From Candidatus Omnitrophota bacterium (lineage in GTDB: Bacteria; Omnitrophota; Gorgyraeia; DTHP01), in assembly GCA_023819145.1 (NCBI GenBank), contig JAMWCW010000001.1, positions 66,400 through 130,399 on the forward strand: a stretch of DNA of 64,000 bases. The letters are read 5' to 3'. The position numbers were made by a program, and so were the translations under genes. Below the pieces are notes generated by a model that was not told the origin of the DNA, searched no databases, and saw only the letters and a list, made by a program, of their open reading frames with translations. Positions 2,400 to 18,471 of the stretch are shown piece by piece; the stretch's first letter is position 1; the number at the start of each line of letters is the position of its first letter.

Positions 2400-3785
2400 A
2401 TGTTATTGGTGAGGTTATTTTTGCTATTTGTTTTTGGTTTAGATGTATTATTTAATTTTTCTTCTTATTTATCTTGCCATAATTTTCTCTACGCATTACG
2501 CAGAAGTAAGCAAAGTAATATTTTTAGCTTAGGAATTGGTTCAAAGAAGACTATCGATGATTTGGGAGATATTTATGGCAAGGTTGTTTTAGTGAGGGTA
2601 GATTTTAATGTGCCTATTAAAGATGGACTTGTTTTAGACACCTATCGCTTAGAAAGAGCAAAAGAGACAATAGAAAATTTAACTAAGCGTGGTGCGAAGG
2701 TAGTTTTGATGTTTCATTTAGGCCGACCCAAAGGAAAGATTGTTCAAGAATATAGGATAGAACCGGTAATTGCTAAGTTTAGTGAAATGTTAGGCAAAGA
2801 GATTAAAATAGGTCCAGATGCCGTAGTAGGTGATGAATTAAGGGAGTTGGTTAGCAAGATGAATCCGGGGGAGGTAATTTCTTTACAGAATTTGCGTTTT
2901 CATTCCGGAGAAGAAAAACAAGATGAAGCCTTTGCGGAGGCAATTCTTAATTACACGAGGGCAGAGATTTACGTAAATGATGGGTCTGCCAATATGCACG
3001 GTAGCGACCAAGTGTCTGAAACTATCTTACCTCTCTTAATGCAGAGAAGAGGGCTTCCGACGGTTTTAGGAAAATTGGTGGTAGAAGAGTTTGGAATTCT
3101 GGAAAATTTTGTTAAGGGTGGTATAGATTTAGCCTTGTTTGGCGGTTCAAAATTTGAAAAGATTGAATCTATAAAGAATTTAGTGTCTAGTGGAAGAGTA
3201 AAAACTGTTTTTCTCTCGGGAGCAATGGCACACTTGTTCCTTAAAGCCAAAGGATTTGAATTAGGAAAGTCTAAAATTGACACAGAACTCGTGAGTGAAG
3301 CAGAAGAGATACTTGCTTTAGCCGAAAAGCGTGGCGTACGCATTGTGCTTCCTGTGGATGTGCGTTTAGATGATGGAAGTTTATTAGTTATTGCTGATAA
3401 AAAAGGAAATAAAATTGCTGATATACCGCCAGAAAGAGCCATTTGGGATATTGGAATTATTACTTTAAAAATGCTCAAAGACATGATGGAGATGATTCCT
3501 TCTTCAGGAAGAATAATTAGTAACGGCACCGCAGGATGGTTAGAAAAAGGTTTTCCTTTTGACTGGGGAACAAATGATATAAATAGAATGTTGATAAATC
3601 ATCCTGCAGAAAAATTAATTTTAGGAGGAGAAGGAGCTTTTGCTGCTTTGAATATGTTGGCTGAATATCAGGGAACACCTGAGCAGTTTAATATGACCAT
3701 TCTTACTGCAGGAGGAGCAGCACTTGCTTATCTAGCAGAAAGAGCGGATGAGCTTACGCCTTTTAATTATATTGATACGAAGTGA
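2400..3785 (+). CDS. pgk: Phosphoglycerate kinase-like protein with ~95-aa N-terminal extension (TM helix plus ALRRSKQSN)
   Basis: VLVRVDFNVP...GAKVVLMFHLGRPKG matches the PGK N-domain signature (RVDFNVP / HLGRP). C-terminal GGGA-like TAGGAALAYL. RBS AGAAGGTG 10 nt before the ATG at 2400. The six-frame ORF start at 2271 lies inside the promoter, so 2400 is preferred. Confidence 0.65.
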   Translation: MLLVRLFLLFVFGLDVLFNFSSYLSCHNFLYALRRSKQSNIFSLGIGSKKTIDDLGDIYGKVVLVRVDFNVPIKDGLVLDTYRLERAKETIENLTKRGAKVVLMFHLGRPKGKIVQEYRIEPVIAKFSEMLGKEIKIGPDAVVGDELRELVSKMNPGEVISLQNLRFHSGEEKQDEAFAEAILNYTRAEIYVNDGSANMHGSDQVSETILPLLMQRRGLPTVLGKLVVEEFGILENFVKGGIDLALFGGSKFEKIESIKNLVSSGRVKTVFLSGAMAHLFLKAKGFELGKSKIDTELVSEAEEILALAEKRGVRIVLPVDVRLDDGSLLVIADKKGNKIADIPPERAIWDIGIITLKMLKDMMEMIPSSGRIISNGTAGWLEKGFPFDWGTNDINRMLINHPAEKLILGGEGAFAALNMLAEYQGTPEQFNMTILTAGGAALAYLAERADELTPFNYIDTK

Positions 3786-3915
3786 TAATGAGTCGTAATC
3801 CGTAAACCGTAATCGGTAATTTGTAATAAAAAATAACGAACTCAACGAAATAACCAACTAAACGAAAATAACGAAATTAACGAACACAACGAACAAAATA
3901 TCATCAACGCAGCCC

Positions 3916-3944
3916 TTGACGATTTGCAAAAAGCGTGTTATATC
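3916..3944 (+). promoter_or_regulatory. Second copy of the identical TTGACG-N17-TATATc promoter
   Basis: cttgacgatttgcaaaaagcgtgttatat is identical to 2263-2291. Lies upstream of the small ORF at 4016 and of the GAPDH-fusion gene. Confidence 0.5.
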
Positions 3945-4015
3945 TTAATGTAGAAGAGAGGTACTTTATAAAACTTAAATTTCAATATCATAAATTAACT
4001 TTCTAGAATAAAAAG

Positions 4016-4201
4016 ATGAGAGATTTTAATTATTTCTTTCTATTGGAAAGTGAAAAAATAGTTTCTCATTCTAAAGGGTATCAAGCCCTGATTAAAGCAT
4101 TGGAGCATGGTTTTGAAGGATTAGACAAGGAAATAGCCAAGAGGTTAATAAATTCCTATTTATATTTAAATGAAAGGAGGGAATGTAATGAAAGGTTCTA
4201 A
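4016..4201 (+). CDS. Small hypothetical ORF (61 aa) between the promoter and the GAPDH-like gene
   Basis: ORF only; weak RBS; overlaps the start of the next gene. Could be a leader peptide or spurious. Confidence 0.2.
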   Translation: MRDFNYFFLLESEKIVSHSKGYQALIKALEHGFEGLDKEIAKRLINSYLYLNERRECNERF

Positions 4202-6611
4202 AATAAAATTTTTCTTAGTTTCTTTTTTGGTGCTTTCTTTTAGTTTTGGTTTTTCTTTTTCCGGTGATTCTTCTTTTTTATTGAGAAGACTCAGAAGTGT
4301 TCCTGTAGGTTATTTACCATCTTCAGGGATAGAAGTGGTAGATGCATTAGATGGTATGGTGAAGGTAGAGATGATTTTGCCTCAAACTTTTGAAGAGAAT
4401 CCGGCGTTAGTTCCGACATTATCGGCTTTTTTTCGTGCTTTAAGCTATAACCGCGATATAGAAATCTCAGCGATTGTATCTCCTGTTTCTGCGGAAGAGT
4501 TGGCTAGAGCCATTCAGTCAAATTATGCGTTAGGTCCGTGGAGAGGGGTTAATGTAAGTGCTGAAGGAAACACCTTAATTATAAGAGGAATGGATACAGA
4601 GGTAAGAATACCTGTTTCTACAAGTTCTACAAGATCCACCGGCGGAGCCGATGTTTCTATCTGTCTAGGAGATGTCTCCCGTGCTCCTTCGATTCTTTCC
4701 GGGAAAAGAGCGCTTTATTTTCCTGTAGGAAGCATAACAACGCAAGAAGGAATAACTGCTTTACCTGGTTCTATTGGAGAATGGGATAGTGCGGTGGTTA
4801 ATGTTTCGGAACTTACAGGTTTAGCAATAGCTTTACAAGCTCTGAGAGAAGAATTAGGAGGTTTTGGGATGGTGGGTAGAATAGATGTATTTTGTCCGGA
4901 AGGGGATATGACTATTGTGCCTTCGGCAAAAGAAGCCGATGTTTCTGATTACCTTTCTTCTTTAGGGATAACCTCCCCGGGAATGAGAGTAACTCTTCAT
5001 ACCACAAAAATATCCGGAGATATCAAAGGAGCAAGACTGGTAGGAATAGTAATTACTTTTCCCAGTAAAGTTACCAAAGAAGATTTAATAAAAATATTTG
5101 AAGCGCATCCTTTATTAGGAGTTGCTCCTGAAAAAGATTCTACTTCGGCAATGTTTACCAACCCCTATGAGACAAAACTTTTTTATCTCAATACCGGTAA
5201 GACTGTGGTAGACGAGCTAAAAGATGGTTCTACCATGATAACTCTGCGTGGTTGGGTAGGGGATTATTCTTACGCAGGAATGATGATTTCTGCCATCACT
5301 GAGGTGGGACAGCGTTTGTCGGAGTTAGGTATTCTTTCTACCCAGAAGGCAAGTGTAATCTATCCGGCAGTAGAGCATCCTAAAGTTCAAGTTCTTGCTC
5401 AACCGAAGAGAGTTATGGTCAATGGGGGAGGAGGGAGAATTGGAGTAAATATTTTGAGAAGTCTTATCGGAGATCCTAATTTTGATGTGGTGGCGGTTAA
5501 CGGAGTGCGTAGTGCCGAAGCCTTGCGTCAGGGATTACTTTATGACGAAATACTAGGTCCTACGCGGGCGGTAATAGAAACCGGCAAGCAGAAGTTATTG
5601 GACGGGAGAGAGATAGAGTTTGTGACTATAAATGGCCATAAAATATATGTGTTTAATGCCCGTGAAGATGAAGAAGTGCGTCAACTTCCGTTAGGTGATT
5701 TGGGGATTGAGTATGTTTTAGAAGCAAGTGGCAATTATACTCAAACAAAGGATTTTGAACCTTTCTTTCAAGCAGGAGCTAAATATGGCTTTATCAGCGC
5801 TCCCGCAAAAGATAAAACTACTCCAGAGATTGTTCCCGGTGTAAATCCTGAAACTTTTGTAGCGATGGCAAGAGAAGGACTATCTCAAGTGGTTTCTTTT
5901 GGTTCATGTACTACAAATAATGCTGCTCCTGCCATAAGAGCAGTGCTTGATCTTTTAGAAGCAAGAGGATTGCAAGTAGAAGAGCAATTAGAAAAAGTCA
6001 CTTTAGAGACAGTTCATGCAGTAACCCAGACCCAAGCACATCTTTTACCAATTCAAATCAGAGACCCAAATAAAGAGCCTGAGAGAGCAAGAGCAGGAGC
6101 ACTTAATATTGTAGTTTCTAGTACTGGTGCAGCTAAAGTTATTCCTAAAATCATTGAAGAAATTGACAAAATGGAGGGAATAGCTTTGCGCGTGGGCAAT
6201 CCTAATGGTTCGGAATCGCAGATTTCTTTCTATTTAGATGGTAAATCGCCCGTGACCAAGGAAGAAATAGTTGCTTATTTACAAGAAAGAGCGAGAACTG
6301 ACCTCTTTAATATTTTAAGAGTAAATACTGGAGAAAAATTAGATTCCCTAGCGATAAACGGTTCAGATATTACTTCCATTGTGGAAGCTTCAACGGTGAA
6401 AGTTACTCCTCGTTATAATGATAAAGGAGAATATGTTGGCGATATGATCGTGCTTAATACTTGGTATGATAACGAATGGAGTTATACTCAACAGTACTTA
6501 AGGGGAATTATTATGTTTACCCTATTACTGGAGAACCCTGGTTTAACCCCCGAAGAACTCTTGGTGCGTAGTGACAGATTGGGTGTACATGCCTATGCTC
6601 CTATCCCATAG
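4188..6611 (+). CDS. gap: Glyceraldehyde-3-phosphate dehydrogenase fused to a ~370-aa N-terminal domain of unknown function, with TM plus LLRRLRSVP leader
   Basis: C-terminal half carries MVNGGGGRIGVNILRSL (NAD-binding GxGxxG), the catalytic SCTTNNAAP (SCTTNCLAP signature with Cys) and TVHAVTQTQ (His176 region). RBS AAAGGAGGG 7 nt before the ATG at 4188. Confidence 0.65.
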   Translation: MKGSKIKFFLVSFLVLSFSFGFSFSGDSSFLLRRLRSVPVGYLPSSGIEVVDALDGMVKVEMILPQTFEENPALVPTLSAFFRALSYNRDIEISAIVSPVSAEELARAIQSNYALGPWRGVNVSAEGNTLIIRGMDTEVRIPVSTSSTRSTGGADVSICLGDVSRAPSILSGKRALYFPVGSITTQEGITALPGSIGEWDSAVVNVSELTGLAIALQALREELGGFGMVGRIDVFCPEGDMTIVPSAKEADVSDYLSSLGITSPGMRVTLHTTKISGDIKGARLVGIVITFPSKVTKEDLIKIFEAHPLLGVAPEKDSTSAMFTNPYETKLFYLNTGKTVVDELKDGSTMITLRGWVGDYSYAGMMISAITEVGQRLSELGILSTQKASVIYPAVEHPKVQVLAQPKRVMVNGGGGRIGVNILRSLIGDPNFDVVAVNGVRSAEALRQGLLYDEILGPTRAVIETGKQKLLDGREIEFVTINGHKIYVFNAREDEEVRQLPLGDLGIEYVLEASGNYTQTKDFEPFFQAGAKYGFISAPAKDKTTPEIVPGVNPETFVAMAREGLSQVVSFGSCTTNNAAPAIRAVLDLLEARGLQVEEQLEKVTLETVHAVTQTQAHLLPIQIRDPNKEPERARAGALNIVVSSTGAAKVIPKIIEEIDKMEGIALRVGNPNGSESQISFYLDGKSPVTKEEIVAYLQERARTDLFNILRVNTGEKLDSLAINGSDITSIVEASTVKVTPRYNDKGEYVGDMIVLNTWYDNEWSYTQQYLRGIIMFTLLLENPGLTPEELLVRSDRLGVHAYAPIP

Positions 6612-6644: not shown

Positions 6645-8798
6645 ATGCGGATAAGCAATTTAGTAAGAGTTATTTTTATTTTCTTTTCTGTTCAATTTTC
6701 TCTCTTTTCTGGTGAACTCCGGAATGGAGTAATCTTAATTTCTCGTCGGGCTAAGAATCAAGAATTTTTAATAGTGTCTCCCTTTCAAAAATTACTCTCT
6801 CTTTTAGGAAACGGATTACAAACTGGTCTTAACTTTGATGAAGGGATAGAACTTTTTCGCCAGATAGAGAGATTGCGCTTGTCTGTGGAGGAAACAGAAG
6901 ATTTTTATTCTTTTATAGCGAATAATCTTGTTGATTTTTTGGTAGTTTCAGAAAGGTCAGGAATTAGAATTGACCTTCTTGATATTCGCGACCTTTTCTC
7001 GGCAGCACAGAACTATGCTTTGGGGATAAGAAGAGATGAGTTGGGATTAAATAGGGGAGGAAGGGCTCTTTTAAATAAGATGTTAAGTGTTAAAGATATA
7101 AAAATCATTGGTGAACAGCTTTTAGAAGCACTTGACTCCTCTTTTAACAATGGCAGGATTGATAAAGCTAATTACCTGAAATATAGAGAGCGTCTTGAAA
7201 TTATTACTCTGATGGCTGGACTCTGGGCAACTTCACCAGTGAGTTCTAAGAGTATGCTTAGAGCTTTAGAAGGAGGAAATACCGCCATTATGGCCGCAAA
7301 TACCCAGATGTCGGTAAGTATTCCCGGACTTATGCTTGCTTCTTTAGAATTTGGAGCTCCCCTTATGTTTGAATCGGCAATGAGTGAAGTCAACCTGCAA
7401 GACCCAAATGACCCTGCGAAAATAGCTATTGGTTATATCGGTAGAAATCCCCAGGAATTTGCGGAAGTAGTAAGATACTATGCCTTTCTTTTAGGTTACG
7501 ACCTGCCTTATGCCATTCATGCTGACCACACCACAGTAAGTAAAGATACAGCGGAGGCAATTGACTATGCTAAAAGACTTAATCAAGCACAATTATCTGC
7601 AGGATATACCTCTTTTGCTATTGATCCTTCATCTCTTCCCGCAGTGAGAGAAGATACCCAGTTAAAAACGCTCAATGCCATGGAGGTGGAAGAGTTCTTG
7701 AGGCTTGGTTTTGATGAAAGTTTAGCAAAAACTTTAGCCGCGCGAGAATTTAAAAAATTAAAAGAACTCTCTTCTATTGAAGGAATAGACGAGAGAAAGA
7801 TCAATATTCTGATGGACTATATTGAGTCACAGATTCTAGTTGCAGTTTTGAATAAAATGGGGTATGAAGATTTGATGAGCATTCCACGTATGCCTGGAAC
7901 TATTGCCCGTGCCATTGTAGAGAACGGTCCGTTTACTTCCTTGGAAGAGCTAAAAGAAATTGATGGGCTGGGTGATGATGATATTTTCTATATTGAGGGA
8001 ATAGACAATGCGGTTCTTTTGTTTGATTATTTAAAGGCTTACTTAGATTTAAAGCGGATTATTGAGATAAATATAGAATTAGCAAAATTTATTCCTGAAG
8101 AGTTTGGTTTAGAGGTGGAAGTTGGTCATATTGGAAGAGTTGATCCACTGACGGGAGAGGCGGTGATGACTACTCCTTTAGAAGCGGTAGTTTTGATTGA
8201 AGCATTACAAAGATTTGGGATAAAACCACAGCTTTTGGCGGTAAATAATGGAACAAAACACGGAATTGTCTTCATTGGGGGTAAAGAGGTTCCTACGACT
8301 GTAGATGTAAAAAGAACCGATGAAATAGCGAGCGCTATAAGACCTTTAGGAGTTTCCCTTGCTCAGCACGGAACTACTGGTACGCCTTTTGAGGTTATAA
8401 AAGATCAACTTGCGGGAAATATCCTTAAAGCCAATGTAGGAACCGAGTGGCGGAGAACTGTTTTAAGAAGCATGCCTTTGGATTTATTCTATAGAATGGT
8501 AGAGTGGACAGTGGAAGAAGAAAAAAGGAAAGCTCCAGAGAAATTTTCTGGACTTCTTCCGGTAAGAAGTTATACACGTGAACAACTGCTAAGTTCAGAG
8601 TGTCCTTACTATGCTTTAATTATTGATCCTATAAAACGGGCAATAGGAGTTTTTAGAGCTGAAATTGATAATATTTCTGGTGAGGATTTGGATTTAATTG
8701 TAGAAACAACCCGCGAAGTAGCAAGAGAGTATTTTACTGCTTTTAATGCTCTAGAGAAAGTTTGGAAGATTGTAAAGTATTTGGGTTGGGGATGGTGA
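6645..8798 (+). CDS. Class II fructose/tagatose-bisphosphate aldolase-like protein with inserted tandem helix-hairpin-helix motifs and N-terminal TM plus ISRRAKNQ leader
   Basis: AIHADHTT (DH metal-binding motif), EVEVGHIGRVD (EaElG-like) and SLAQHGTTGTP...ILKANVGTEWRR (LHGgSG...KiNidT-like) fit the class II aldolase TIM barrel. SIEGIDERKINIL and IPRMPGTIARAIVENGPFTSLEELKEIDGLG are HhH-like. Confidence 0.5.
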   Translation: MRISNLVRVIFIFFSVQFSLFSGELRNGVILISRRAKNQEFLIVSPFQKLLSLLGNGLQTGLNFDEGIELFRQIERLRLSVEETEDFYSFIANNLVDFLVVSERSGIRIDLLDIRDLFSAAQNYALGIRRDELGLNRGGRALLNKMLSVKDIKIIGEQLLEALDSSFNNGRIDKANYLKYRERLEIITLMAGLWATSPVSSKSMLRALEGGNTAIMAANTQMSVSIPGLMLASLEFGAPLMFESAMSEVNLQDPNDPAKIAIGYIGRNPQEFAEVVRYYAFLLGYDLPYAIHADHTTVSKDTAEAIDYAKRLNQAQLSAGYTSFAIDPSSLPAVREDTQLKTLNAMEVEEFLRLGFDESLAKTLAAREFKKLKELSSIEGIDERKINILMDYIESQILVAVLNKMGYEDLMSIPRMPGTIARAIVENGPFTSLEELKEIDGLGDDDIFYIEGIDNAVLLFDYLKAYLDLKRIIEINIELAKFIPEEFGLEVEVGHIGRVDPLTGEAVMTTPLEAVVLIEALQRFGIKPQLLAVNNGTKHGIVFIGGKEVPTTVDVKRTDEIASAIRPLGVSLAQHGTTGTPFEVIKDQLAGNILKANVGTEWRRTVLRSMPLDLFYRMVEWTVEEEKRKAPEKFSGLLPVRSYTREQLLSSECPYYALIIDPIKRAIGVFRAEIDNISGEDLDLIVETTREVAREYFTAFNALEKVWKIVKYLGWGW

Positions 8799-11325: not shown

Positions 11326-13551
11326 ATGGGTATGAGGAAAATATTCATATTTTGTTTTATTCTCATAAAATTTGCCATCTTTTCATTTTCTTTTAATTTT
11401 TCCTCTTTAGAAATTATTGCGCATCGCAGAACTAAAATTTCTCCTTTAGTAGCAAATCATGAGTCTGTAAGGAAAGTTTTAGTAGATATTTTCTACAGAG
11501 CAGCAGGATTTCAAGGGGCTTTGCGCAGCGGAACAGCACAAGAACGGCGAGATATTTTAAACCAACCTGAGGTAAAGCGCGCTGTTTCTTTGCTCCAATA
11601 TGGTTTGAGTTTAGGAAGTACAACTTTAAGAAATCAAGTGGCTTATCTTGCTGAACGTTTAGGGATAAGCGCGAATCCCGCAGTAAATATTGGAATCTAT
11701 CAGGGAGAAGCCGAAATTTTTGATATTCTGGGAAATATCTTTATGCCTGAGGGAGATGGTTTAGTCTTTTATCAAAAAGGAACTGATAATCCCGAAACTC
11801 TTTTTAAGCCTTTTTTGGCTCGCTATGGAGCCAAAATATTTGAATTTGACCCTTACTTCGTAGAGCGCAATTCTACTCCCTCCTATTCTACAGAATTAAG
11901 CGGTTTTGAAGCGCTGATTTCTTTAGCTATTCAAGAGGGACAAAATCCGCGTTTTATCTATCTTAGCGGAAAAGGTTTAACCGAAGCGCAAGCAAGAAGA
12001 ATTTATGCTTTGGCAGAAACTTACAATCTTATAATTATTGAGGATATTACCAACGCAAACCCTACAGATTATCTACTTTCTGCAAACGATTCTCAAGGGA
12101 GAGTAATTTCCATCGGAAATTTTGACAAGTATTTAGGGGCTGCAAATCCTTTAAGTTATGCCATTGCGGGAGAAGAGATTATGCGTCTTATGGAAATTGC
12201 TATTGGCGGGATAAGTCTTCATCCCAATGCTTTTATTCAGCCGATAGTCTCGGAAATTTTAGCCCAAAACGGTATACCTTTCTCGGTAAATGTTTCCTAT
12301 AAACCCATCACTCTTTCTGAGAGTGTAAAAGCAATTCTTGCTTCAACAGGTGCAGACCAGCGCTTAAAACCCTCCATCATTAGAGAAATTCTTAAAGGGG
12401 CAGTTTCGGATATGGTGCGTATGGGAGGAGGGGTTCCTGCCGAGGAGTTCTTCCCTTATGTGGAAATTGCCCAGATTATAGAAAATATGAGCCCTGAGGA
12501 ATGGGAAAAGGTAATGGCTGGGGACCCGGCGATTAATTTAGAGTTGCGCAGTGTTTTTTGCCGGTGGCTTGAAGAAAGAGGAATAAAAGCTGACCCCCGT
12601 CAGGTTTTGGTAACCAATGGGAGCCAGCAGGGTTTGGATTTATTGGGAAGATGGGTGGGAAAAGAAGGAGTTGTTTTTGCCGAATCTCCTACCTATGTAG
12701 GAATGATTACGGGAGTTGCTCCTTACGGAGGCCTTCCTTATGGTAGAAATATTCGGCATTGGGATTTACGCACACTCACTGGATTAGAGAATTTAGAGAA
12801 AGAAATTGAAGAGAACTATCGAGGTAAAAAAATTGTTTTATATGTTACACCAAACTTTGGTAATCCTCCTTCAGGGAATATGTGGACGATTAGCGAAAGA
12901 AGGAATCTTCTGGCTTTTGCCCAGAGGATGCGCTTAAAGGGATACGATTTGCATATTGTAGAAGATGATCCTTATGGAGAACTAAATTATACTGGTCAAA
13001 GAATTGTAGATATCAAAGAGTTGGATACAAACGGAACAGTAATTTATTTCAACTCCAATTCCAAAGTCTTTTCTCCGGGAATGCGTGTGGGGTACATTGT
13101 GGCTGATGAGAAAATAATTCATGAATTTGCTTCTCTTATGGATGAAGTAGGTTCTTTTGTTCCTACACTCCCCCAACTTATTATTACTAAGTTTATCGAG
13201 ACAGGAGCGATGGATAGACATATTGAATTTTTGATTGGTGAATATTCAAAACGTGCACGGGCAATGGAAGAAGCTTTAGAGGAATTTATGCCTGAAGGTG
13301 TAACCTGGACAAAACCTGAGGGAGGGTTATTTATTACTTTAACTGTTCCCTGGGATATAGATTTTATGGCCATGCTTGAGGAGGCCAAAAATTACGCGAT
13401 TCCCTTTAACTTTGTTCCGGGTATCGCCTTTAGTGTGGATGGCTCAAGTGCTCATAAAATTCGTCTTTGCTTTTCCACAGAGTCTGAAGAAAGAATAACC
13501 TTAGGTATTAAGGCTTTTGCGGAGTTGATAAAAAAACACCTTGGCCAATAG
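11326..13551 (+). CDS. PLP-dependent class I/II aminotransferase fused to ~400-aa N-terminal domain, TM plus AHRRTKISP leader
   Basis: C-terminal half has VLVTNGSQQGLDLL, DDPYGEL and NSNSKVFSPGMRVGYIV (the SxSKxxxxxGxRxG Lys-PLP motif of fold-type I aminotransferases). RBS GGGGGAGG. Confidence 0.6.
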   Translation: MGMRKIFIFCFILIKFAIFSFSFNFSSLEIIAHRRTKISPLVANHESVRKVLVDIFYRAAGFQGALRSGTAQERRDILNQPEVKRAVSLLQYGLSLGSTTLRNQVAYLAERLGISANPAVNIGIYQGEAEIFDILGNIFMPEGDGLVFYQKGTDNPETLFKPFLARYGAKIFEFDPYFVERNSTPSYSTELSGFEALISLAIQEGQNPRFIYLSGKGLTEAQARRIYALAETYNLIIIEDITNANPTDYLLSANDSQGRVISIGNFDKYLGAANPLSYAIAGEEIMRLMEIAIGGISLHPNAFIQPIVSEILAQNGIPFSVNVSYKPITLSESVKAILASTGADQRLKPSIIREILKGAVSDMVRMGGGVPAEEFFPYVEIAQIIENMSPEEWEKVMAGDPAINLELRSVFCRWLEERGIKADPRQVLVTNGSQQGLDLLGRWVGKEGVVFAESPTYVGMITGVAPYGGLPYGRNIRHWDLRTLTGLENLEKEIEENYRGKKIVLYVTPNFGNPPSGNMWTISERRNLLAFAQRMRLKGYDLHIVEDDPYGELNYTGQRIVDIKELDTNGTVIYFNSNSKVFSPGMRVGYIVADEKIIHEFASLMDEVGSFVPTLPQLIITKFIETGAMDRHIEFLIGEYSKRARAMEEALEEFMPEGVTWTKPEGGLFITLTVPWDIDFMAMLEEAKNYAIPFNFVPGIAFSVDGSSAHKIRLCFSTESEERITLGIKAFAELIKKHLGQ

Positions 13552-13608
13552 ATTTTTTTGTAATATTTATATCTCCCTTTGGTTATAGATAATAGGGGGG
13601 CGAGAAAG

Positions 13609-14769
13609 ATGAAGAAATACTTAAGAATTAGAGGGATATTTATTTTAGTAGTATTTGTAGTATTTTTATTTACGCTTTTGATTCCTGTAAAACATTCCTT
13701 GGCTTATCCCAGGAGTTATCCTTATTTAGTTTCTAATTCATTACCAGCTTTTTCCGCGCGAGGGTTTAATGAAGCGCTCTTAGCGCGAGTTTTGCGCGAG
13801 ATTATCATTATCTATAAATTCTTGGCTCAAATCGAAAGGGTTCTTAATGAAAGAGGAGAAAATGATTTTCCATCTTTAGGTAGGGTCATCGGAGACAGAC
13901 CTCAGGAGAGAGAAAATTCCCAAAATACTCCCCCCAAAAGAAGTAATTTAAGGGAAGAACCTGCGGGTAACCGTCATCTAGACCCAGAAAATCCTTCGGC
14001 AAAACTACCAGAAGGGTCATCTTCGTCACCTGCTGGTTCTCTAGGAAAGATAAAGATTGCGATTATTGATATTGACTCTAAGCACGCCGCAGAAGTAAAG
14101 GCGGTAATGGAAGAGACAATTCGGCGTAAGAATCCCGGGGCAAAAGTAGAAATTCGTACCATTATTCTTCCTGGCAAATGGCAAAGGGATGGTTCTAAAG
14201 CGGTGGCTACCAGTGATATTTTAGACGCTTTTGCAGAAGCCAAAGCTTGGGGCGCAAAGGTAATCAATATGAGTATTGGTGCACAAGGAGGTGTAGACGG
14301 TATAGTGCTTAGTGCCTTACGCGACCTTTCTGAAAGTGGCATTCTGGTAGTAGCGGCATCAGGTAATGAAGGTAGTTATGATGCTTGGGGGCAAGCTGGC
14401 CGATATGTCTTATCAGTGGGGGTAAGAGGTGCACCTTATTCCAATACCGCTGATTTATATGTCGATTGGGGAGAGCTTCCACCTGGATTAGAAGGCACAT
14501 CTTTTGCTGCTCCGATTATTGCTGCGGAAGCGGCTTTAGCCTGGTTAGAAAACCCTTCCCTTAACTTGGCAAGTTTGCCTTCTCAATTAGGTTCACGGGA
14601 CACAGTTTATGCCCGGAGTAATCCTCCGCAAAGAAGTTCGCAGGGGTTTCACACTTCGGCAATAGAGTTTGTAAGGCCACCTGTTGTTTTTTATACGCCG
14701 GTGGAAGAAATGCCTTTTTACGAACAGAGTTTTTATTCGCCTGTTGGCTGTTTTCCGTCTTTTTGGTAA
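13609..14769 (+). CDS. Subtilisin-like serine peptidase (S8 family) with N-terminal TM helix
   Basis: VVAASGNEGS (Asn oxyanion region), GTSFAAPIIAAEAALAW (GTSxAAP Ser motif) and AKVINMSIG. RBS AGGGGGG before the ATG at 13609; the six-frame ORF extends to 13579. Confidence 0.6.
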   Translation: MKKYLRIRGIFILVVFVVFLFTLLIPVKHSLAYPRSYPYLVSNSLPAFSARGFNEALLARVLREIIIIYKFLAQIERVLNERGENDFPSLGRVIGDRPQERENSQNTPPKRSNLREEPAGNRHLDPENPSAKLPEGSSSSPAGSLGKIKIAIIDIDSKHAAEVKAVMEETIRRKNPGAKVEIRTIILPGKWQRDGSKAVATSDILDAFAEAKAWGAKVINMSIGAQGGVDGIVLSALRDLSESGILVVAASGNEGSYDAWGQAGRYVLSVGVRGAPYSNTADLYVDWGELPPGLEGTSFAAPIIAAEAALAWLENPSLNLASLPSQLGSRDTVYARSNPPQRSSQGFHTSAIEFVRPPVVFYTPVEEMPFYEQSFYSPVGCFPSFW

Positions 14770-14876
14770 TTTTTGTTTGTTTTCTTCTAAATAAAGGGGA
14801 CACTTACTACCGACTCTTCATTGGTTGTAAGAAAGTAAAAGATATTAAACTTGAATTCCGAGGAGGTATTATATAA

Positions 14877-16064
14877 ATGAAAAATAGTAGAGGAAAGATT
14901 TATGTTATGTTTTTGGGTTTGTTATTTTTCTTTCTTAACTCATTATTATATTTAGACTTATCTGCGGGATGCTCTTTCCGGCGAATCAAAACTCAACCTG
15001 CCAAAGAATCTGCGCTGGTGCTTTTTTTCCACGAATTAGGTAGAGAAGATATTTTTTTAGTGGGAGGAAAAGGGGCAAATTTGGGAGAACTTTCGCATAT
15101 TGCCGGGATAAGCGTTCCCGAGGGGTTTGTAGTTACCACCACCGCTTTTCAAAAATTTTTAGATGCCAACCCTGGATTACAAGATAAAATTATCAGGATT
15201 ATAAATAGTATAGATTGGGATACCCCTTCCAGTATAAACTCTGCTGCGGAAAAGATAAAAGAAGCGGTTTTGCGTGCGAACATGCCGCGAGAGATTATTG
15301 AGATGATTAAAGCAGGTTATGGCCATTTAGAAGAGATCTCCGGAATAAAGGATGTGCCCTGTGCTGTAAGAAGTTCGGGAGTTGCTGAGGATTCTCCTAA
15401 CTTTTCTTGGGCAGGTCAATTCCGCACTGAATTAAATCAGAGGGGAATATATCAGGTTTTAGAGGCGGTTAAATTAATCTGGGCAGAGTTGTATAATCCT
15501 GATGCCCTTACCTATGGACATCAGAATGGTATCGACCCGCGCAAATTTTCTATGGGAGTGGTAATTCAGCGGATGATAAATTCAGAGAAATCAGGAGTGG
15601 CTTTTGGACTGGAGTCCGATACAGGTTTTCGTGCCAATCCCGGAGGAATGGAAGGAGTTTTTTATATTGAAGGGGTTTATGGTTTAGGTGAAGGGATGGT
15701 GCAAAATATTCAAGAACCTGATGGATTTTTGGTAGTAAAGATGCCTAATGGTGAATTTAAAATTATTGAACGCATTTTCGGTTCCAAAAGAGAACAGATA
15801 GTTTATCGGTCTGGAATGAGTGGGACAGAGAAAACTTCGGTTCCCGAAGAATGGCGTCAGAGATGGGTTTTTTCAGAAGCAGAGGTGTTAGAGATTGCTC
15901 GTGCAGTTTTTGCCTTAAATAGCCACTATAATCATCCCCAGGATGTAGAATTTGCCTGGGAAGGAGGAAAACTATACATATTACAATCACGCAATGAGAC
16001 AGTTCATGCAGATAAACCAGTAGATTTAATTGAATGGAGAAAGTTTAGAATTAACCTTAAATGA
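14877..16064 (+). CDS. PEP-utilizing dikinase (PpsA/PPDK family) N-terminal nucleotide-binding domain protein, TM plus SFRRIKTQP leader
   Basis: FLVGGKGANLGELSHIAGISVPEGFVVTTTAFQKF is the PPDK_N / PEP synthase ATP-grasp signature. RBS AGGAGG 10 nt upstream. Confidence 0.65.
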   Translation: MKNSRGKIYVMFLGLLFFFLNSLLYLDLSAGCSFRRIKTQPAKESALVLFFHELGREDIFLVGGKGANLGELSHIAGISVPEGFVVTTTAFQKFLDANPGLQDKIIRIINSIDWDTPSSINSAAEKIKEAVLRANMPREIIEMIKAGYGHLEEISGIKDVPCAVRSSGVAEDSPNFSWAGQFRTELNQRGIYQVLEAVKLIWAELYNPDALTYGHQNGIDPRKFSMGVVIQRMINSEKSGVAFGLESDTGFRANPGGMEGVFYIEGVYGLGEGMVQNIQEPDGFLVVKMPNGEFKIIERIFGSKREQIVYRSGMSGTEKTSVPEEWRQRWVFSEAEVLEIARAVFALNSHYNHPQDVEFAWEGGKLYILQSRNETVHADKPVDLIEWRKFRINLK

Positions 16065-16083
16065 AAAAAGGGGGAGATAAATA

Positions 16084-18471
16084 ATGAAGTGGTTACATGT
16101 TAAAATTTTTTGGAGTATTGCCTTTTTAATTATTGCCAGCCTACTTTATGTTGATAATCTTTTTATGTTTTCTTCTTTAGATTTTATTACAAGAAGAGTA
16201 TTAACTCCTTCTTATACAGATTCTCCTTCGGTTGAGGTTCCCTCCGGTTCTCCTAAAATAATTGCCCGTGGAGAAGGGGTAGGTGCTAAAGGAGCGGGGG
16301 TAGGACGAGTGGTTATCATTGATGAAAATAGTTCCATCCCTATTCGTGAGCAGGCAATGCGTGTGCGCGAAGGAGATGTACTTGTTGCTTATCGCACCGA
16401 TCCTTCTTTGGTGGATGCCATGCGCCGAGCAGGTTTGGTGATTACTGAAATTGGAGGGAAAAATTCTCATGCTGCGATTGTCGCTAGAGAATTTAATTTA
16501 AATGCGGTTATTGGTGTGCCCAATGCTACGCGTATTTTTGCTCAAGGGCAGGTAGTTACTGTTGATGCTGAGCATGGAGTCATTTATGCTGGAGCTTTGC
16601 CGCTTGAAGAAGATAGTGTTTCCTATCGCGTGAGTGAACTTCCGTCTACGAGCCCTGTAAAGATAGGGATACTTTCCTTTGATACTGCTCGGGTGAGAGC
16701 GATGTTTCCTTTGGGTTTGTATTCTGATTTTTACGGTATAGGGCTGATGCGTGCAGAGTTTGCTTTACAAAATATTGGCATCCATCCGTTAGCAATATTG
16801 GATTTTGATAGAGGTACGCTTAGAGATGCAAGGCTACAAACAGAAATTACGCAAAAAATCAAAGGCTATGCGAGTGCGCGAGACTATTACATCTCAAAAC
16901 TTTCTTCTGCAATATTTTCCAATTCGCTTATTCTACATGAGGGGCAAAAGGTTATTTACCGCACCACTGATTTTAAAACCAACGAATATGAAGATATGTT
17001 AGGAGGGGATGTTTACGAGCATAAAGAGCCCAACCCCATGATGGGCAATCGCGGTTTACAGCGAATGATTAGTCCTGAATACCGGGAAGCATTTGATATG
17101 GAACTCGAAGCATTTTTACTTGCCTGGAAAGATAATCCGGGAAAGATTTCTATCATGGTTCCTATGGTACGCACTCCCCAAGACCTTCTGACTTTTCGTC
17201 AAATTCTTGAGGGAAAAATAAGGAGTATGGGGCTCTCGGGTATGCCTGAGGTAGTAATGATGTATGAATTGCCCGCGAATGTTTTTCAGATAGAGGAATT
17301 TATTCACGCCGGTATAAATGGTATTTCCATTGGTTCAAATGACCTGACACAATTTATTCTGGCAGTAGACAGGGACAGTGGTTTATTTAGAGAAGGAGGT
17401 AGAGAAGAATATGATGCCGTAAATAGAGCAGTATTGCGTGCTATCGGCATCGGTATAACTTCTTCTAAAGCCCGCGGTGTAAAAACAGGTATTTGTGGGC
17501 AAGCGCCATCAGACCATCCAGATGTTTATCCTGCAATTCTTACTGCTTTAGGAATAGATTCTATAAGTGTTACTCCCGATGTGTTTCATAAAGTGGTAGA
17601 AGCAGTAGCCCAAGCACAACAAAATCCTTCTTTTGGGATGAGATACCTTTCGGGTTTAGATTTATTTTTAGGCTACGATACCCAGACTAATCCCAAACGA
17701 GAATTAAAGAAGATAATTAGTTCTGATGATATACTTCGGAGTATTGGCATTCATCCTTTAGCCTTACTTGCCTTTGACCGGGGAAGTAGTTTATTGAGTG
17801 ATACGGCGATAAGTAGGCAGATTGTTTCTTTTGCCGGAGAAGAAACTGCAGAACGGGCTTACTTTGACCGTGTATATAGGGCGGTAAAGAATGCTTTACT
17901 TATGGATGGAGAGGTAGTTTATAGAACAGGAAGTTTGCTCAGTACCGATTATAAAACGCTTGTGGGAGGAGATATTTTTGAAAAAGAAGAAGCAAATCCC
18001 TTATTGGGTGCGTTTGGAATGTACCGCCTGCTCAGATATGGTTCAGAAGATGGCGCTTTGAGTATGCGTGATATTTTTAACATAGAGATGGATGCAGTTT
18101 TAAAAGCTGTGCGGGATACCGGTAAAGTTATTCATTTAGAGTTAGATATGGTGCGCACTTTTGGAGAATTACAGGAGGCAGTTTCTGTGATTAATGAGGC
18201 AATACGCCGTACAGGGATTTCTCCAGATAAGGTGAAAATTGGTCTAAATGTTTCTACTCCGGCAAATGTTCTGCTTATTTCTGATTTTATTAACCAAGGG
18301 AGATTAAGTTTTGTGAGTATCGACGAAAAAAGGTTAGCCTGTTATCTTTTGGGGGTGGATTCCTTGAGTATGGTTAGCCCCGAGGCTATTGAACGAGCCC
18401 TATATATACCTCGTCAACTGGTTTATACAGCATTAGCTCAAAAGGGAATCCCTTTAGTTAACTCCCCCTAA
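16084..18471 (+). CDS. PEP-utilizing dikinase central phospho-His domain plus TIM-barrel domain followed by a degenerate second TIM-barrel copy; TM plus ITRRVLTPS leader
   Basis: TEIGGKNSHAAIVAREFNLNAVIGV (PEP-utilizers mobile His domain); MVPMVRTPQDL and GSNDLTQFILAVDRDS (PEP-utilizers_C). A second copy, IGIHPLALLAFDRG...LDMVRTFGEL...SIDEKRLACYLLGVD, has the NDLTQ motif degenerated. RBS GGGGGAG. Confidence 0.65.
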   Translation: MKWLHVKIFWSIAFLIIASLLYVDNLFMFSSLDFITRRVLTPSYTDSPSVEVPSGSPKIIARGEGVGAKGAGVGRVVIIDENSSIPIREQAMRVREGDVLVAYRTDPSLVDAMRRAGLVITEIGGKNSHAAIVAREFNLNAVIGVPNATRIFAQGQVVTVDAEHGVIYAGALPLEEDSVSYRVSELPSTSPVKIGILSFDTARVRAMFPLGLYSDFYGIGLMRAEFALQNIGIHPLAILDFDRGTLRDARLQTEITQKIKGYASARDYYISKLSSAIFSNSLILHEGQKVIYRTTDFKTNEYEDMLGGDVYEHKEPNPMMGNRGLQRMISPEYREAFDMELEAFLLAWKDNPGKISIMVPMVRTPQDLLTFRQILEGKIRSMGLSGMPEVVMMYELPANVFQIEEFIHAGINGISIGSNDLTQFILAVDRDSGLFREGGREEYDAVNRAVLRAIGIGITSSKARGVKTGICGQAPSDHPDVYPAILTALGIDSISVTPDVFHKVVEAVAQAQQNPSFGMRYLSGLDLFLGYDTQTNPKRELKKIISSDDILRSIGIHPLALLAFDRGSSLLSDTAISRQIVSFAGEETAERAYFDRVYRAVKNALLMDGEVVYRTGSLLSTDYKTLVGGDIFEKEEANPLLGAFGMYRLLRYGSEDGALSMRDIFNIEMDAVLKAVRDTGKVIHLELDMVRTFGELQEAVSVINEAIRRTGISPDKVKIGLNVSTPANVLLISDFINQGRLSFVSIDEKRLACYLLGVDSLSMVSPEAIERALYIPRQLVYTALAQKGIPLVNSP

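Follow-up and report, generated by a model that had tools for sequence, protein, structure and literature searches.

Relocated glycolysis is known from kinetoplastid glycosomes (PTS1/2) and from sperm GAPDHS with its N-terminal anchor, and Thermotoga has a PGK-TPI fusion; we know of no bacterium whose glycolytic enzymes are tagged as a group. Stramenopiles possess a mitochondrial TPI-GAPDH fusion (PMC6198282). Like the proteins described here, the enzymes of these systems collectively carry targeting extensions and include fusions of consecutive enzymes, but all except the Thermotoga fusion are eukaryotic, and their signals are unrelated to the one reported below. In the same phylum as the present locus, the giant membrane proteins of Omnitrophota (Archaeovorins; 'multi-enzyme metabolic clusters') likewise bear TPI, FBPase, aldolase, PPDK/PEP-utiliser, methyltransferase, kinase, HAD and GT1 domains on predicted signal peptides or membrane anchors (bioRxiv 10.1101/2023.11.21.568195; bioRxiv 10.64898/2026.06.07.730766). 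Their TPI, FBPase, aldolase, PGM and PPDK-like domains have been predicted to be extracellular (bioRxiv 10.1101/2023.11.21.568195), and they pose the same localisation puzzle, the prediction pointing outside and the chemistry inside. Whereas the giant proteins join such domains in chains of 10-147 kAA, the proteins studied here are stand-alone, 260-1430 aa long and each equipped with its own short tag; a conserved Arg-Arg (RR) motif, tandem pseudo-dimers, GAPDH, PGK and PFK are not reported for the giant proteins. We found neither the tag nor a tandem GAPDH described in earlier literature.

The window analysed is a 64-kb stretch of DNA from a Candidatus Omnitrophica MAG, and it contains an operon-like cluster that belongs to a small Omnitrophota clade (Table 1). 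An original prediction, made from the sequence alone, had placed a glycolytic locus at 2400-18471; this locus is real, but the coherent block begins earlier, at 287. Its products include the sugar-phosphate enzymes phosphoglycerate kinase (PGK), GAPDH, class II aldolase, a PFK of the PPi type and PEP synthase in two pieces, and alongside them a SAM methyltransferase, an aminotransferase, a subtilase-like protein and a small protein resembling kinases. The enzyme cores lie where they had been predicted, as Pfam confirmed for each (PGK from residue 95 of the long ORF, Gp_dh_N/C at 414-745, PFK at 123-457 and Aminotran_1_2 at 399-725), and the enzymes of 2400-18471 are kept full-length across independent metagenomes. 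The sugar-phosphate enzymes, which serve to break down or build sugars, are a dedicated, very divergent set. All enzymes of the block score far under the NCBIfam equivalog cut-offs (194 bits for the tandem GAPDH against 367 for GAPDH-I), whereas GAPDH, PGK and enolase of complete Omnitrophota genomes elsewhere pass strict KO thresholds. The rest of the window showed no glycolytic genes of canonical type.

Table 1. Features of the block and of the remaining window (RR, Arg-Arg pair of the tag)
Feature	Position	Strand	Length (aa)	RR, nt (context)	Details
Class-I SAM methyltransferase, tagged	287..1210	+	307	413-418 (LSARRVKS)	Pfam Methyltransf_31 E 5.9e-10
U304, tagged	1362..2210	-	~282, from MRTRILL	2112-2117 (SSLRRIKT)	divergent from PGK operon
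Divergent promoter-like pair	2227..2291	plus 2263-2291, minus 2255-2227			both TTGACG-17-TATATT, extended TG
PGK, tagged	2400..3785	+	461	2499-2504 (YALRRSKQ)	Pfam PGK E 1.5e-76; PDB 3uwd full-length, E 1.7e-52
Small ORF, untagged	4016..4201	+	61		overlaps GAPDH start
Tandem GAPDH-GAPDH, tagged	4188..6611	+	807 (ATG 4188) or 813 (ATG 4170)	4284-4289 (FLLRRLRS)	
GAPDH copy 1, aa 52-412	4323..5405	+			complete GAPDH fold, catalytically degenerate
GAPDH copy 2, catalytic, aa 413-813	5406..6608	+			phmmer to 1dbv/1gd1, E ~5e-37, full length; Cys580 nt 5907-5909, His616 nt 6015-6017
Class II fructose-bisphosphate aldolase, tagged	6645..8798	+	717	6744-6749 (LISRRAKN)	Pfam F_bP_aldolase E 7e-22, two stretches; HHH_3, module nt 7845-7979
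PFK, PPi-type signature, tagged	8869..10407	+	512	8959-8964 (FSFRRIHR)	Pfam PFK E 1e-38; alignments to 4a3s, 5xoe; N-domain nt 9001-9228
Small kinase-like protein, tagged	10462..11253	+	263	10549-10554 (VYARRVKW)	weak NCBIfam Bud32 match, E 4.9e-4
Tandem aminotransferase, tagged	11326..13551	+	741	11425-11430 (IAHRRTKI)	N copy nt 11443-12360; catalytic C copy nt 12361-13548
Subtilase (S8)-like protein	13579..14769	+			Pfam Peptidase_S8 E 4e-10, partial; N-terminal hydrophobic anchor, no RR motif
PEP-synthase ATP-grasp (nucleotide-binding) half, tagged	14877..16064	+	395	14979-14984 (CSFRRIKT)	Pfam PPDK_N E 2.4e-91
PEP-synthase phospho-His domain and PEP/pyruvate barrel, then second degenerate barrel, tagged	16084..18471	+	795	16192-16197 (FITRRVLT)	His domain nt 16366-16578; barrel 1 nt 16729-17619; barrel 2 nt 17734-18468
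Terminator-like hairpin	18489..18501	+			directly 3' of block's last gene; consensus scan only
Strong promoter-like site, next gene	18949-18977				consensus scan only
Asparaginase-like protein, tagged	60162..61886	+	574	60240-60245 (CFARRIPS)	Pfam Asparaginase E 6e-24

The main feature, overlooked by the original prediction, is a hydrophobic segment with an RR tag that the proteins of the block have in common. This tag of 30-45 aa consists of a Lys-rich basic n-region, a Phe-rich hydrophobic helix of 17-22 aa, about 9 polar residues and then Arg-Arg in the pattern Φ-x-R-R-(V/A/T/I)-(K/R/Q/H), the extended consensus being S-(L/F/V/Y/C)-(S/I/A)-(L/F/C/S)-R-R-(V/A/T/I)-(K/R/Q/H)-(T/S/D)-(P/S/I). 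An RR pair 10-22 aa beyond a hydrophobic core is present in 10 of the 11 ORFs of 287-18471 compared with 1/25 in the rest of the window, where the asparaginase-like protein is the only one tagged. The strict pattern matches 32 of 77 ORFs of cluster loci as against 11/2007 (0.5%) in 1.4 Mb of unrelated control genomes. Some 55 proteins of relatives carry the tag, which is kept on orthologues and other cargo in ~10 independent relatives, the most distant tandem-GAPDH members included, and is better conserved than the domains behind it. In 58/58 proteins the first two adjacent basic residues beyond the h-region are RR; the n-regions are 66% Lys and have a mean net charge of +2.1, as in ordinary signal peptides, and a basic cluster (net ~+2) lies just C-terminal of the helix. 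The tag contains no clear AxA-type signal-peptidase site. Unrelated cargo comprises methyltransferases, a GT1/GT4 glycosyltransferase, an LRR protein (in relatives), asparaginase and HAD-like proteins, and a single tag serves an entire aldolase-PFK fusion. All cargo is of the cytoplasmic, cofactor-dependent type, using ATP, PPi, NAD(P), SAM, PLP or nucleotide sugars. Neither enolase nor phosphoglycerate mutase was found among the tagged proteins of the block and its relatives, and no receptor or protease is consistently linked to the tagged clusters, the S8-like gene being absent from clusters L001 and L004.

Tat signal peptides resemble the tag in their invariant N-terminal Arg-Arg beside a hydrophobic segment, and the export of folded, cofactor-containing enzymes by Tat would suit the tagged cargo. 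We nevertheless rejected membership of the Tat family, as the position of RR and the flanking consensus differ: the Tat motif S/T-R-R-x-F-L-K precedes the h-region, whereas in the tag RR follows it by ~9 residues with the flanks R-R-V-K-T-P. The window does contain a canonical Tat signal, in which RR stands ahead of the h-region, on another protein at 58900; the tag is thus a signal of another kind. In Plasmodium PEXEL (RxLxE/Q/D), Toxoplasma TEXEL (RRLxx) and oomycete RxLR proteins, a hydrophobic ER/Sec signal is followed within ~10-30 residues by an Arg motif that singles out diverse effectors to be processed and carried out of the cell that makes them. The two-part logic is the same, but these motifs act in eukaryotic secretory pathways with aspartyl proteases, and since the tag has no homology to them, the likeness is convergence at most.

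The extra length of the proteins has three sources, namely the shared N-terminal tag, tandem duplication and small added modules. Enzymes that are normally obligate dimers have become tandem single chains in which one copy is degenerate (GAPDH-GAPDH, aminotransferase-aminotransferase and the doubled PEP barrel), and PGK, a monomer as a rule, carries the tag as its sole extension. Most of the proteins are indeed over-long, as had been noticed, but PGK is merely ~50-60 aa above canonical length and the dikinase is two ORFs; the N-domains of GAPDH and aminotransferase, taken for unknown domains, are degenerate tandem copies of their own enzymes. Copy 1 of GAPDH lacks the GxGxxG motif and has LSExT in place of SCTTN. 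In copy 2, the catalytic half, which is at most 36% identical to GAPDHs retrieved from reference genomes, position 32 is Gly (AVNG) instead of Asp; its catalytic Cys and His are invariant throughout the tandem family. The C half of the aminotransferase matches 1wst and 3aov (E ~1e-62) and retains the PLP Lys, and the two halves align to each other with 25% identity over 212 aa (blastp E 0.014; HHalign probability 93%, E 2.5e-7).

The aldolase has an N-extension of ~190 aa and an inserted ComEA-like helix-hairpin-helix module; its family spans 9 clusters, aldolase-PFK fusions among them. The PFK displays GGDD at aa 226 and KTIDGD at aa 251, preceded by a conserved N-domain of ~75 aa that distinguishes it from known PPi-dependent PFKs. 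With these it shares Asp104 and Lys124 (E. coli numbering), the residues that switch ATP to PPi use, and both are present in 5/5 family members examined. The only close PGK orthologue is P0011 (73% identity). Judged by their sequences, both dikinase halves are of the PEP synthase type (pyruvate,water dikinase; NCBIfam PEP_synth), a far better match than PPDK: the ATP-grasp half finds the PEP synthases 8a8e and 2ols with E 1e-50 to 1e-52 compared with 1e-11 for PPDK, and the 795-aa half aligns to 2ols with E 7e-77, keeping the phospho-His and Cys motifs GGKNSHAAIVARE and GICGQ. Dikinase domains and both motifs match PpsA, but the enzyme of the block is split into two tagged polypeptides, whereas that of relatives is a single 1292-aa chain, and a second, dead barrel has been added (33% identity over 215 aa, blastp E 3e-30; copy 2 lacks GSNDLTQ). 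Like PFK, it stays under the family cut-off, the 795-aa half scoring 451 bits as NCBIfam PEP synthase. The gene set leans towards a reversible or gluconeogenic direction, with its PEP synthase, its reversible PPi-PFK, a GAPDH without Asp32 and, in relatives, a GlpX FBPase; relatives encode an additional tagged TPI, FBPase and aldolase-PFK fusions.

We infer that the tag is a targeting signal common to these enzymes, which would gather them in one place as a reversible or gluconeogenic-leaning sugar-phosphate module. Most likely the tag directs proteins to the membrane or to export, and that the set is tagged and often duplicated suggests a deliberate relocation of core metabolism to or past the membrane. 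Our preferred reading, held tentatively and at somewhat less than an even chance, is that the first two parts of the tag, n- and h-region, work like a signal or signal-anchor of the Sec/SRP type; with the N-terminus kept inside, the enzyme domain would lie beyond the cytoplasmic membrane. RR may then serve as an additional specific element, recognised or processed so that the enzyme is retained, released or passed on to the periplasm, to the cell surface or to a host or prey cell that is attached. The charge of the n-region, the difference from the canonical Tat signal of the window, the one tag per aldolase-PFK fusion, the LRR protein among the cargo of relatives and the extracellular prediction for enzyme domains of the giant proteins support this orientation. 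If the enzymes are exported unfolded and then diluted, single-chain pseudo-dimers and fusions would spare them the search for a partner subunit. Against export, a normal periplasm lacks the cofactors that all cargo needs, an isolated extracytoplasmic pathway would be incomplete given that no tagged enolase or phosphoglycerate mutase was found, the tag shows no clear signal-peptidase site, its clusters have no consistently linked receptor or protease, and the basic cluster behind the helix might just as well act as a positive-inside determinant and impose the reverse orientation. A 2026 preprint takes the phylum's TM-only giant multi-enzyme proteins as cytoplasm-facing (bioRxiv 10.64898/2026.06.07.730766), and West-Roberts et al. 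doubt their own extracellular prediction (bioRxiv 10.1101/2023.11.21.568195). Accordingly oriented, N-out/C-in or otherwise inward, the tag would be an uncleaved anchor of a membrane-bound glycolytic/gluconeogenic metabolon in ultra-small cells, with RR and K/R as positive-inside determinant and perhaps docking motif, for example beside importers of host-derived metabolites. We consider this possible but rather doubtful. Cytoplasmic cofactors would be at hand, soluble enzymes could supply the missing enolase and mutase, and the basic cluster lies ~9 aa past a helix of TM length; however, a Lys-rich, positively charged n-region should, as in bacterial membrane proteins generally, stay in the cytoplasm, a generic positive-inside patch would need no invariant Arg-Arg where n-regions are so rich in Lys, and tethering gives no obvious reason to turn dimeric enzymes into single-chain pseudo-dimers.

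The original prediction itself, taken as a cytosolic PPi-economising glycolysis of the organism with lineage-specific extensions devoid of a targeting role, is improbable. Its PFK signature was borne out, its catalytic motifs (SCTTN/TVHA, RVDFNVP/HLGRP and GGD..G.NA/TIDGD) align correctly to solved structures, and the rest of the window offers no canonical alternative; but the dikinase, being of the PEP synthase type, provides no evidence for pyrophosphate economy, strongly hydrophobic helices do not fit soluble cytosolic enzymes, the same well-conserved tag occurs on unrelated cargo, and the family scores set these proteins apart from those of complete Omnitrophota genomes. In other bacteria GAPDH, aldolase and PGK are well known to moonlight at the surface, the present lineage is inferred to live attached to a host, and one copy of each duplicated enzyme is catalytically dead, as would be expected of displayed adhesins or binding proteins for which catalysis is irrelevant. 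We regard such a role as very unlikely, since GAPDH Cys/His, PLP Lys, phospho-His and PFK active site are kept over deep divergence, even where N-domain similarity is barely detectable, which marks the proteins as probable enzymes and not relics, as had been proposed, and since the genes cover consecutive steps of one coherent pathway, some neighbours being fused (aldolase-PFK). Of frameshifts, misassembly and over-extended starts, the first of which the original prediction had allowed for, the last did affect the mechanical PGK ORF, which from TTG 2271 is 43 codons too long (the NCBI product P0010, 461 aa, begins at ATG 2400). As a general explanation, artefact is refuted and its probability negligible: full-length architectures and tags recur in independent NCBI, JGI, ENA and Logan assemblies, the 800-aa GAPDH architecture is found end-to-end in 9 clusters, down to 44% identity, and the GAPDH N-domain has dozens of invariant columns and a confident fold of GAPDH type.

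U304 has no match in Pfam or NCBIfam, and its tagged orthologues adjoin the cluster in L001, L095, L097 and L099. The kinase-like protein has no Pfam match. In the S8-like protein NMSIG and GTSFAAP align to subtilases, and the catalytic His motif was not identified in that alignment. The position of the promoter-like pair at 2227..2291 favours ATG 2400 as the PGK start; its two sites are consensus matches only, the total match count being not above shuffled controls. Syntenic counterparts of the small ORF at the GAPDH start, 53-65 aa long and weakly similar, occur in L001, L095, L099 and L102 and have the core E-x2-(F/L)-x2-(L/I)-D in common.

The main finding is a clade-specific N-terminal tag on divergent, internally duplicated enzymes of central carbon metabolism. 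Glycolytic enzymes are textbook soluble cytoplasmic proteins. The window itself is part of a Candidatus Omnitrophica MAG. When the N-termini of all window ORFs were printed, nearly every protein encoded in the operon-like block at 287-18471 was found to open with the same tag, built from a short basic n-region, a Phe-rich hydrophobic stretch of 17-22 aa (h-region) and an Arg-Arg pair (RR) about nine residues further on. The RR is present in 10 of the 11 block ORFs, the sole exception being a subtilase-like protein, and stands in the contexts SFRRIKT, LLRRLRS, ISRRAKN, FSFRRIHR, YARRVKW, AHRRTKI, ITRRVLT, SLRRIKT, SARRVKS and ALRRSKQ. Outside the block it occurs in 1 of about 25 window ORFs (an asparaginase-like protein), 13 of which are comparably hydrophobic at the N terminus. 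The tag also marks orthologues and further proteins on some ten related contigs, and the most distant tandem-GAPDH relatives keep it (LICRRVQT, LILRRVQD). About 55 distinct proteins give the consensus S-(L/F/V/Y/C)-(S/I/A)-(L/F/C/S)-R-R-(V/A/T/I)-(K/R/Q/H)-(T/S/D)-(P/S/I), with RR at median residue 34, a median distance of 9 aa after the h-region and a mean n-region net charge of +2.1. A strict form of the pattern matches 32/77 ORFs in the Omnitrophota cluster loci versus 11/2007 in unrelated bacterial loci totalling 1.4 Mb. Past the hydrophobic stretch, the first dibasic pair is RR in 58/58 proteins, a set partly chosen on RR and including orthologues, so that its statistical weight is indicative at best; the n-regions are 66% Lys. 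Cys is enriched at -1 to -4 of RR (VCRR, CCRR, TCRR, SCRR, GCSFRR, CFARR); it is not invariant and comes without a lipobox.

Enzyme cores had been predicted for 2400-18471, all on the + strand, and Pfam recovers each of them: PGK; GAPDH (Gp_dh_N/C, residues 414-745 of 813); a class II aldolase carrying an HHH_3 insert; PFK (residues 123-457 of 512); a class I/II aminotransferase (residues 399-725 of 741); a partial subtilase; PPDK_N (395-aa ORF); and PEP-utilizers with PEP-utilizers_C (795-aa ORF). The catalytic motifs quoted in the original prediction align correctly with solved structures, and the retained active-site residues favour its view that these are probably active enzymes rather than relics. 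A frameshift origin of the extensions is ruled out, as the 800-aa GAPDH is conserved end to end in independent assemblies. Nine protein clusters share this architecture at identities as low as 44%; they stem from NCBI, JGI, ENA and Logan assemblies, and the alignment of the N-domain contains dozens of invariant columns. Every enzyme of the set scores far below its NCBIfam cut-off; to judge by sequence, the tagged enzymes are deeply divergent paralogues. The PGK starts at the ATG at 2400, giving the NCBI product of 461 aa, and a promoter-like site lies within the extension that would begin at TTG-2271; promoter and terminator assignments are consensus matches only. Rfam returned no match over the whole window.

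The N-domains of GAPDH and aminotransferase, originally described as unknown, turned out by structure search and by HHalign/blastp, respectively, to be copies of the enzyme itself. For the N-terminal GAPDH half (copy 1, residues 52-412), the AF2 model (pLDDT 80, pTM 0.85) retrieved GAPDHs as all of its top 50 PDB matches in Foldseek (E 9e-18, TM 0.64-0.72, 11-17% identity), and copy 1 is thus modelled with a GAPDH fold. The duplication was resolved by structure; HHalign of the two halves gave 1.9% probability only, and self-BLAST of the whole protein found no internal repeat. Because GxGxxG is missing and LSExT stands in place of SCTTN, copy 1 is predicted to be catalytically dead. Its profile matched zero canonical GAPDHs among 1.84 billion representatives; the matches were four strong and two weak clusters of proteins of about 800-890 aa, together with a seventh, weak one (P0141, 438 aa), an unrelated repeat protein. 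A metagenome scan with the N-domain yielded 7 loci only, most of them short, and in a reference-genome contig scan with the full GAPDH alignment canonical GAPDHs dominated via the universal TWYDNEW, long forms being absent among the matches.

The C-terminal half (copy 2, residues 413-813) is collinear with 1dbv/1gd1 over residues 4-321 (E about 5e-37) and keeps GGGRIG, SCTTN, TVHA, TGAAK and WYDNE. The catalytic Cys149 and His176 correspond here to Cys580 and His616, both unchanged across 9 sequences. The protein, which belongs to the type I GAPDH domain families (PF00044+PF02800), reaches 194 bits against the equivalog model (TIGR01534; cut-off 367); between its catalytic half and the canonical GAPDHs obtained from reference genomes, identity does not exceed 36%. 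In NAD-specific GAPDHs, Asp at position 32 excludes NADP. Copy 2 has an invariant Gly at this position (AVNG), and its best PDB matches are a D32G NADP-engineered enzyme and NADP-type GapA/GapB; as a suggestion rather than a proof, copy 2 may accept NADP(H). Directly 5' of the long GAPDH or a TPI gene lies an untagged small ORF (53-65 aa), which overlaps GAPDH in the window. The small ORFs have a common core, E-x2-(F/L)-x2-(L/I)-D-(K/A/E)-x-(I/L); their similarity is weak and their position syntenic, and possible roles are those of regulator, chaperone or translational-coupling leader.

The PGK alignment covers the whole enzyme, the Gly-rich motifs in its C-domain having drifted somewhat, and the extra length is the tag alone; one account describes the enzyme as usually monomeric (PMC7729029). 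Among 2887 matches, no untagged PGK of the same MAG was recognised. A separate family of about 794 aa from Bacteroidota and other metagenomes (P0012-P0030, not in the window), often with PF06962 (putative rRNA methylase), outscores canonical PGKs against the tagged PGK and may represent another over-long PGK type.

The combination Asp104/Lys124 in PFK is the PPi-type signature. GGDD and KTIDGD of the tagged PFK align with GGDGS and PGTIDND of 4a3s/5xoe (Gly104 to Asp and Gly124 to Lys, E. coli numbering), and both residues are kept in 5/5 family members; the enzyme thus carries the PPi-type signature and may use PPi as phosphoryl donor. The best NCBIfam score is 157 bits (PFK_mixed, cut-off 430), and PPi-PFK models give 58-97 bits against cut-offs of 273-588. 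A conserved 75-aa N-domain of this PFK is also the linker in aldolase-PFK fusions. The aldolase (PF01116) is matched in two stretches by Pfam (E 7e-22), at 40 bits versus 343 by NCBIfam and at E 0.004 in the PDB. Its putative class II motifs HADH, GTKHG, QHGTTG and KANVGTE follow in the expected order, as read from the sequence. The extra length consists of the HhH insert and an N-extension of about 190 aa; that the latter is a duplicated barrel was considered and rejected, as support was lacking.

Both halves of the dikinase match the PEP synthases 2ols and 8a8e (E 1e-50 to 1e-77) far better than PPDKs (E 1e-10 to 1e-14), and a PPDK identity was rejected because of this much stronger similarity; the PPDK model TIGR01828 gives 69 bits versus 843. 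The proposed pyrophosphate economy therefore retains its PFK and loses its dikinase, which is of the PEP-synthase type. ATP-grasp, phospho-His swivel and PEP/pyruvate barrel are all present, distributed over two ORFs that are each tagged, and the motifs GGKNSHAAIVARE (phospho-His) and GICGQ are kept. It is the split that keeps the score against the PEP synthase model TIGR01418 (419 bits versus 740) under the cut-off. Within the C-fragment lies another PEP-binding barrel (E 3e-30, 33% identity), from which GSNDLTQ has disappeared. In the aminotransferase, the C half aligns (E 1e-62) with residues 25-412 of 1wst, NSNSKVF standing opposite tfSKil (PLP Lys, S-x-K; PF00155). Its N half is 25% identical to the catalytic half over 212 aa in blastp (E 0.014), and HHalign of the two halves gives 93% probability (E 2.5e-7), the PLP-Lys column being kept as well. 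Since copies are found in GAPDH, aminotransferase and dikinase, whereas PGK has gained only the tag, we conclude that enzymes which normally form dimers have been turned into single-chain pseudo-dimers. Whatever the role of the tag, the enzyme architectures are new: tandem GAPDH-GAPDH, pseudo-dimers of the aminotransferase and the PEP barrel, and aldolase-PFK fusions.

The relatives' tagged sets are syntenic with that of the window. Across the window and the relatives' loci, the tagged set spans TPI, aldolase, PPi-PFK/FBPase, GAPDH, PGK and PEP synthase; a screen of unidentified tagged neighbours turned up neither enolase nor phosphoglycerate mutase nor pyruvate kinase. PEP synthase, FBPase, the reversible PFK and perhaps a GAPDH of the NADP type tilt the set towards a reversible or gluconeogenic direction, into which aminotransferase and asparaginase could feed amino-acid carbon. 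Some relatives also encode tagged proteins of one family, about 750-770 aa long, whose sole domain is a C-terminal PEP-utilizers swivel (phospho-His), with the motif HLW.SWD(E/D)ILPNL and no BLAST similarity to the window dikinase.

Coordinates and composition of features in the window and in relatives' contig loci (L-numbers)
Locus	Position	Feature	Length (aa)	Remark
Window		SAM methyltransferase		tagged
Window		Bud32-like kinase		tagged; weak match
Window	4016-4201 (+)	small ORF
Window	13579-14769 (+)	subtilase-like protein
Window	19002-23138 (+)	signal-peptide protein	1378	directly downstream of block
Window	23396-29443 (+)	signal-peptide protein	2015	directly downstream of block
Window	29623-30276 (+)	IS200-like Y1 transposase
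Window	31839-42295	OEP/HlyD/RND efflux cluster
Window	44883-49025 (+)	trehalose cluster
Window	49207	lipoprotein
Window	51428-53686	spermidine-synthase-MFS fusion protein
Window	54698	lipoprotein
Window	58900-60069 (+)	radical-SAM protein
Window	60162	asparaginase-like protein		tagged
L001	9834-10001	small ORF
L001/L086		U304 (tagged family), GAPDH, aldolase, GlpX FBPase, aminotransferase	FBPase 538	tagged
L004		aminotransferase, GAPDH, PFK, PEP-utilizers protein	PFK 587; PEP-utilizers protein 760	tagged
L004	10001-12460	ORF with Cys before RR
L004	14332-16614	tagged PEP-utilizers swivel family	about 750-770
L093		GAPDH, aldolase-PFK fusion, PEP-utilizers protein, HAD-like protein		tagged
L093	4040-7156	aldolase-PFK fusion	1038	one tag
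L093	7279-9594	tagged PEP-utilizers swivel family	about 750-770
L095		dikinase, small ORF, GAPDH, U304, aldolase
L095	534-4412	unsplit dikinase	1292	one tagged chain
L095	4696-4881	small ORF
L096		GT1/GT4 glycosyltransferase, LRR protein, GAPDH, PFK, Methyltransf_28 protein		tagged
L096	3645-6041	ORF with Cys before RR
L097	4903-7164	tagged PEP-utilizers swivel family	about 750-770
L099		PGK, ..., aldolase, PFK, aminotransferase		tagged
L099	6394-6555	small ORF
L100	12225-14624	PFK	799
L101	2839-7131	GlpX FBPase	1430
L102		TPI	314	tagged
L102	1807-2004	small ORF
L102	3086-6847	aldolase-PFK fusion (P0134)	1253	single tag

The tag differs from known signals. A Tat signal was rejected, as its RR precedes the h-region, whereas that of the tag comes after, and because the ORF at 58900 shows the canonical Tat arrangement, with TRRNFIKK ahead of the h-region. 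This ORF encodes a radical-SAM protein whose signal is of the textbook type (KPLTRRNFIKK, then an h-region); ordinary Tat signals thus seem to be in use beside the tag in this organism. A lipoprotein (SPase II) signal was discarded because no L-[AS]-[GA]-C lipobox closes the h-region, and the true lipoproteins of the window have different N-termini. Nor is RR a plain positive patch, being invariant although the n-regions are Lys-rich. A Sec signal peptide (SPase I) calls for small residues at -3 and -1 of the c-region; the tag has an n-region and an h-region, yet the latter is long (17-22 aa) and an S-x-G-like site occurs in some proteins only, so that the tag seems to fit only partly. PEXEL, TEXEL and RxLR are host-targeting elements of eukaryotic parasites. 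Their combination of signal peptide and motif resembles the tag conceptually, without homology, and the same applies to the tagged set and relocated glycolysis in glycosomes and stramenopile mitochondria (PMC6198282).

The tag would bring all cargo together at, or past, the cytoplasmic membrane. That the enzymes lie outside this membrane is a serious possibility, a little short of probable. The Lys-rich n-region, as in ordinary signal peptides, should remain cytoplasmic, the invariant RR exceeds the needs of a positive patch, single-chain dimers and fusions fit proteins that are exported unfolded and later diluted, and the cargo includes an LRR protein. In addition, for domains of the TPI, FBPase, aldolase, PGM and PPDK-like types in Omnitrophota giant proteins, West-Roberts et al. 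(bioRxiv 10.1101/2023.11.21.568195) independently predicted an extracellular position. Attachment to the cytoplasmic face, which we regard as somewhat less likely, would agree with the dependence of all cargo on ATP, PPi, NAD(P), SAM, PLP or nucleotide sugars and with a TM-length helix followed by a basic cluster; soluble enzymes could then fill the pathway gaps, and a preprint (bioRxiv 10.64898/2026.06.07.730766) reads TM-only multi-enzyme giants as inward-facing.

If the enzymes are instead located outside, their activity needs a compartment with cofactors, for which the attached host or prey cell would be the obvious, albeit speculative, candidate; a host-dependent nanobacterial lifestyle has been described for these organisms (PMC10066038; bioRxiv 10.1101/2023.11.21.568195). 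It is quite conceivable, though less likely than not, that the tag is a new sorting signal exporting a 'cytoplasmic' enzyme repertoire to a metabolically active extracytoplasmic space or into the host or prey cell. The cargo would then comprise an almost complete reversible stretch of glycolysis/gluconeogenesis, together with methyltransferases, kinases, a glycosyltransferase and LRR proteins; the exported enzymes would rewire or harvest host carbon metabolism, and the pseudo-dimers and fusions would have been re-engineered for that export. Should this hold, ultra-small episymbiotic or predatory bacteria would possess a sorting system and a way of exploiting hosts that are both new. A role of the S8-like protease as dedicated tag-processing enzyme is only an idea, against which it speaks that no catalytic His motif can be identified and that the L001 and L004 clusters lack the gene. 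This subtilase-like protein is anchored N-terminally and shows the Asn (NMSIG) and Ser (GTSFAAP) motifs; HGT(H) is not recognisable, the Asp-to-His spacing is very short, and either a processing protease or a pseudo-protease is conceivable.

A phenomenon of this kind has already been glimpsed in the phylum. The closest known case is that of the Omnitrophota giant multi-enzyme proteins, or Archaeovorins, in which metabolic domains are bundled and membrane-anchored. A giant is a single polypeptide of at least 10 kAA with many enzyme domains, whereas the tagged proteins, at 260-1430 aa, fall outside this definition; enzyme families and predicted membrane attachment are common to both. The block is an unbundled, individually tagged counterpart of the giants that adds GAPDH, PGK, PFK, the RR motif and pseudo-dimers, and the literature within reach contained no account of the tag, tandem GAPDH or aldolase-PFK fusions. 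One address label per glycolytic enzyme and dimers rebuilt as single chains suggest a deliberate relocation of central carbon metabolism, which bears on the Omnitrophota puzzle of sugar-phosphate and other cofactor-dependent domains in membrane-anchored giants with predicted outside topology. Giants of 10,000-147,000 aa are hard to test, whereas the tagged proteins (260-800 aa, with a 35-aa tag) are tractable stand-alone.

Further along the window, two large signal-peptide proteins follow the block. The first weakly matches an OmpA barrel and has, close to its N-terminus, the repeat AKVRTQVI(R/K) / ARVRTQVIKE; no other domains were recognisable in the pair. The transposase lies between them and the efflux cluster. 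The trehalose cluster encodes OtsA (GT20), OtsB (trehalose phosphatase), DUF5752 and a TreT-type trehalose synthase, with the spermidine-synthase-MFS fusion protein nearby.
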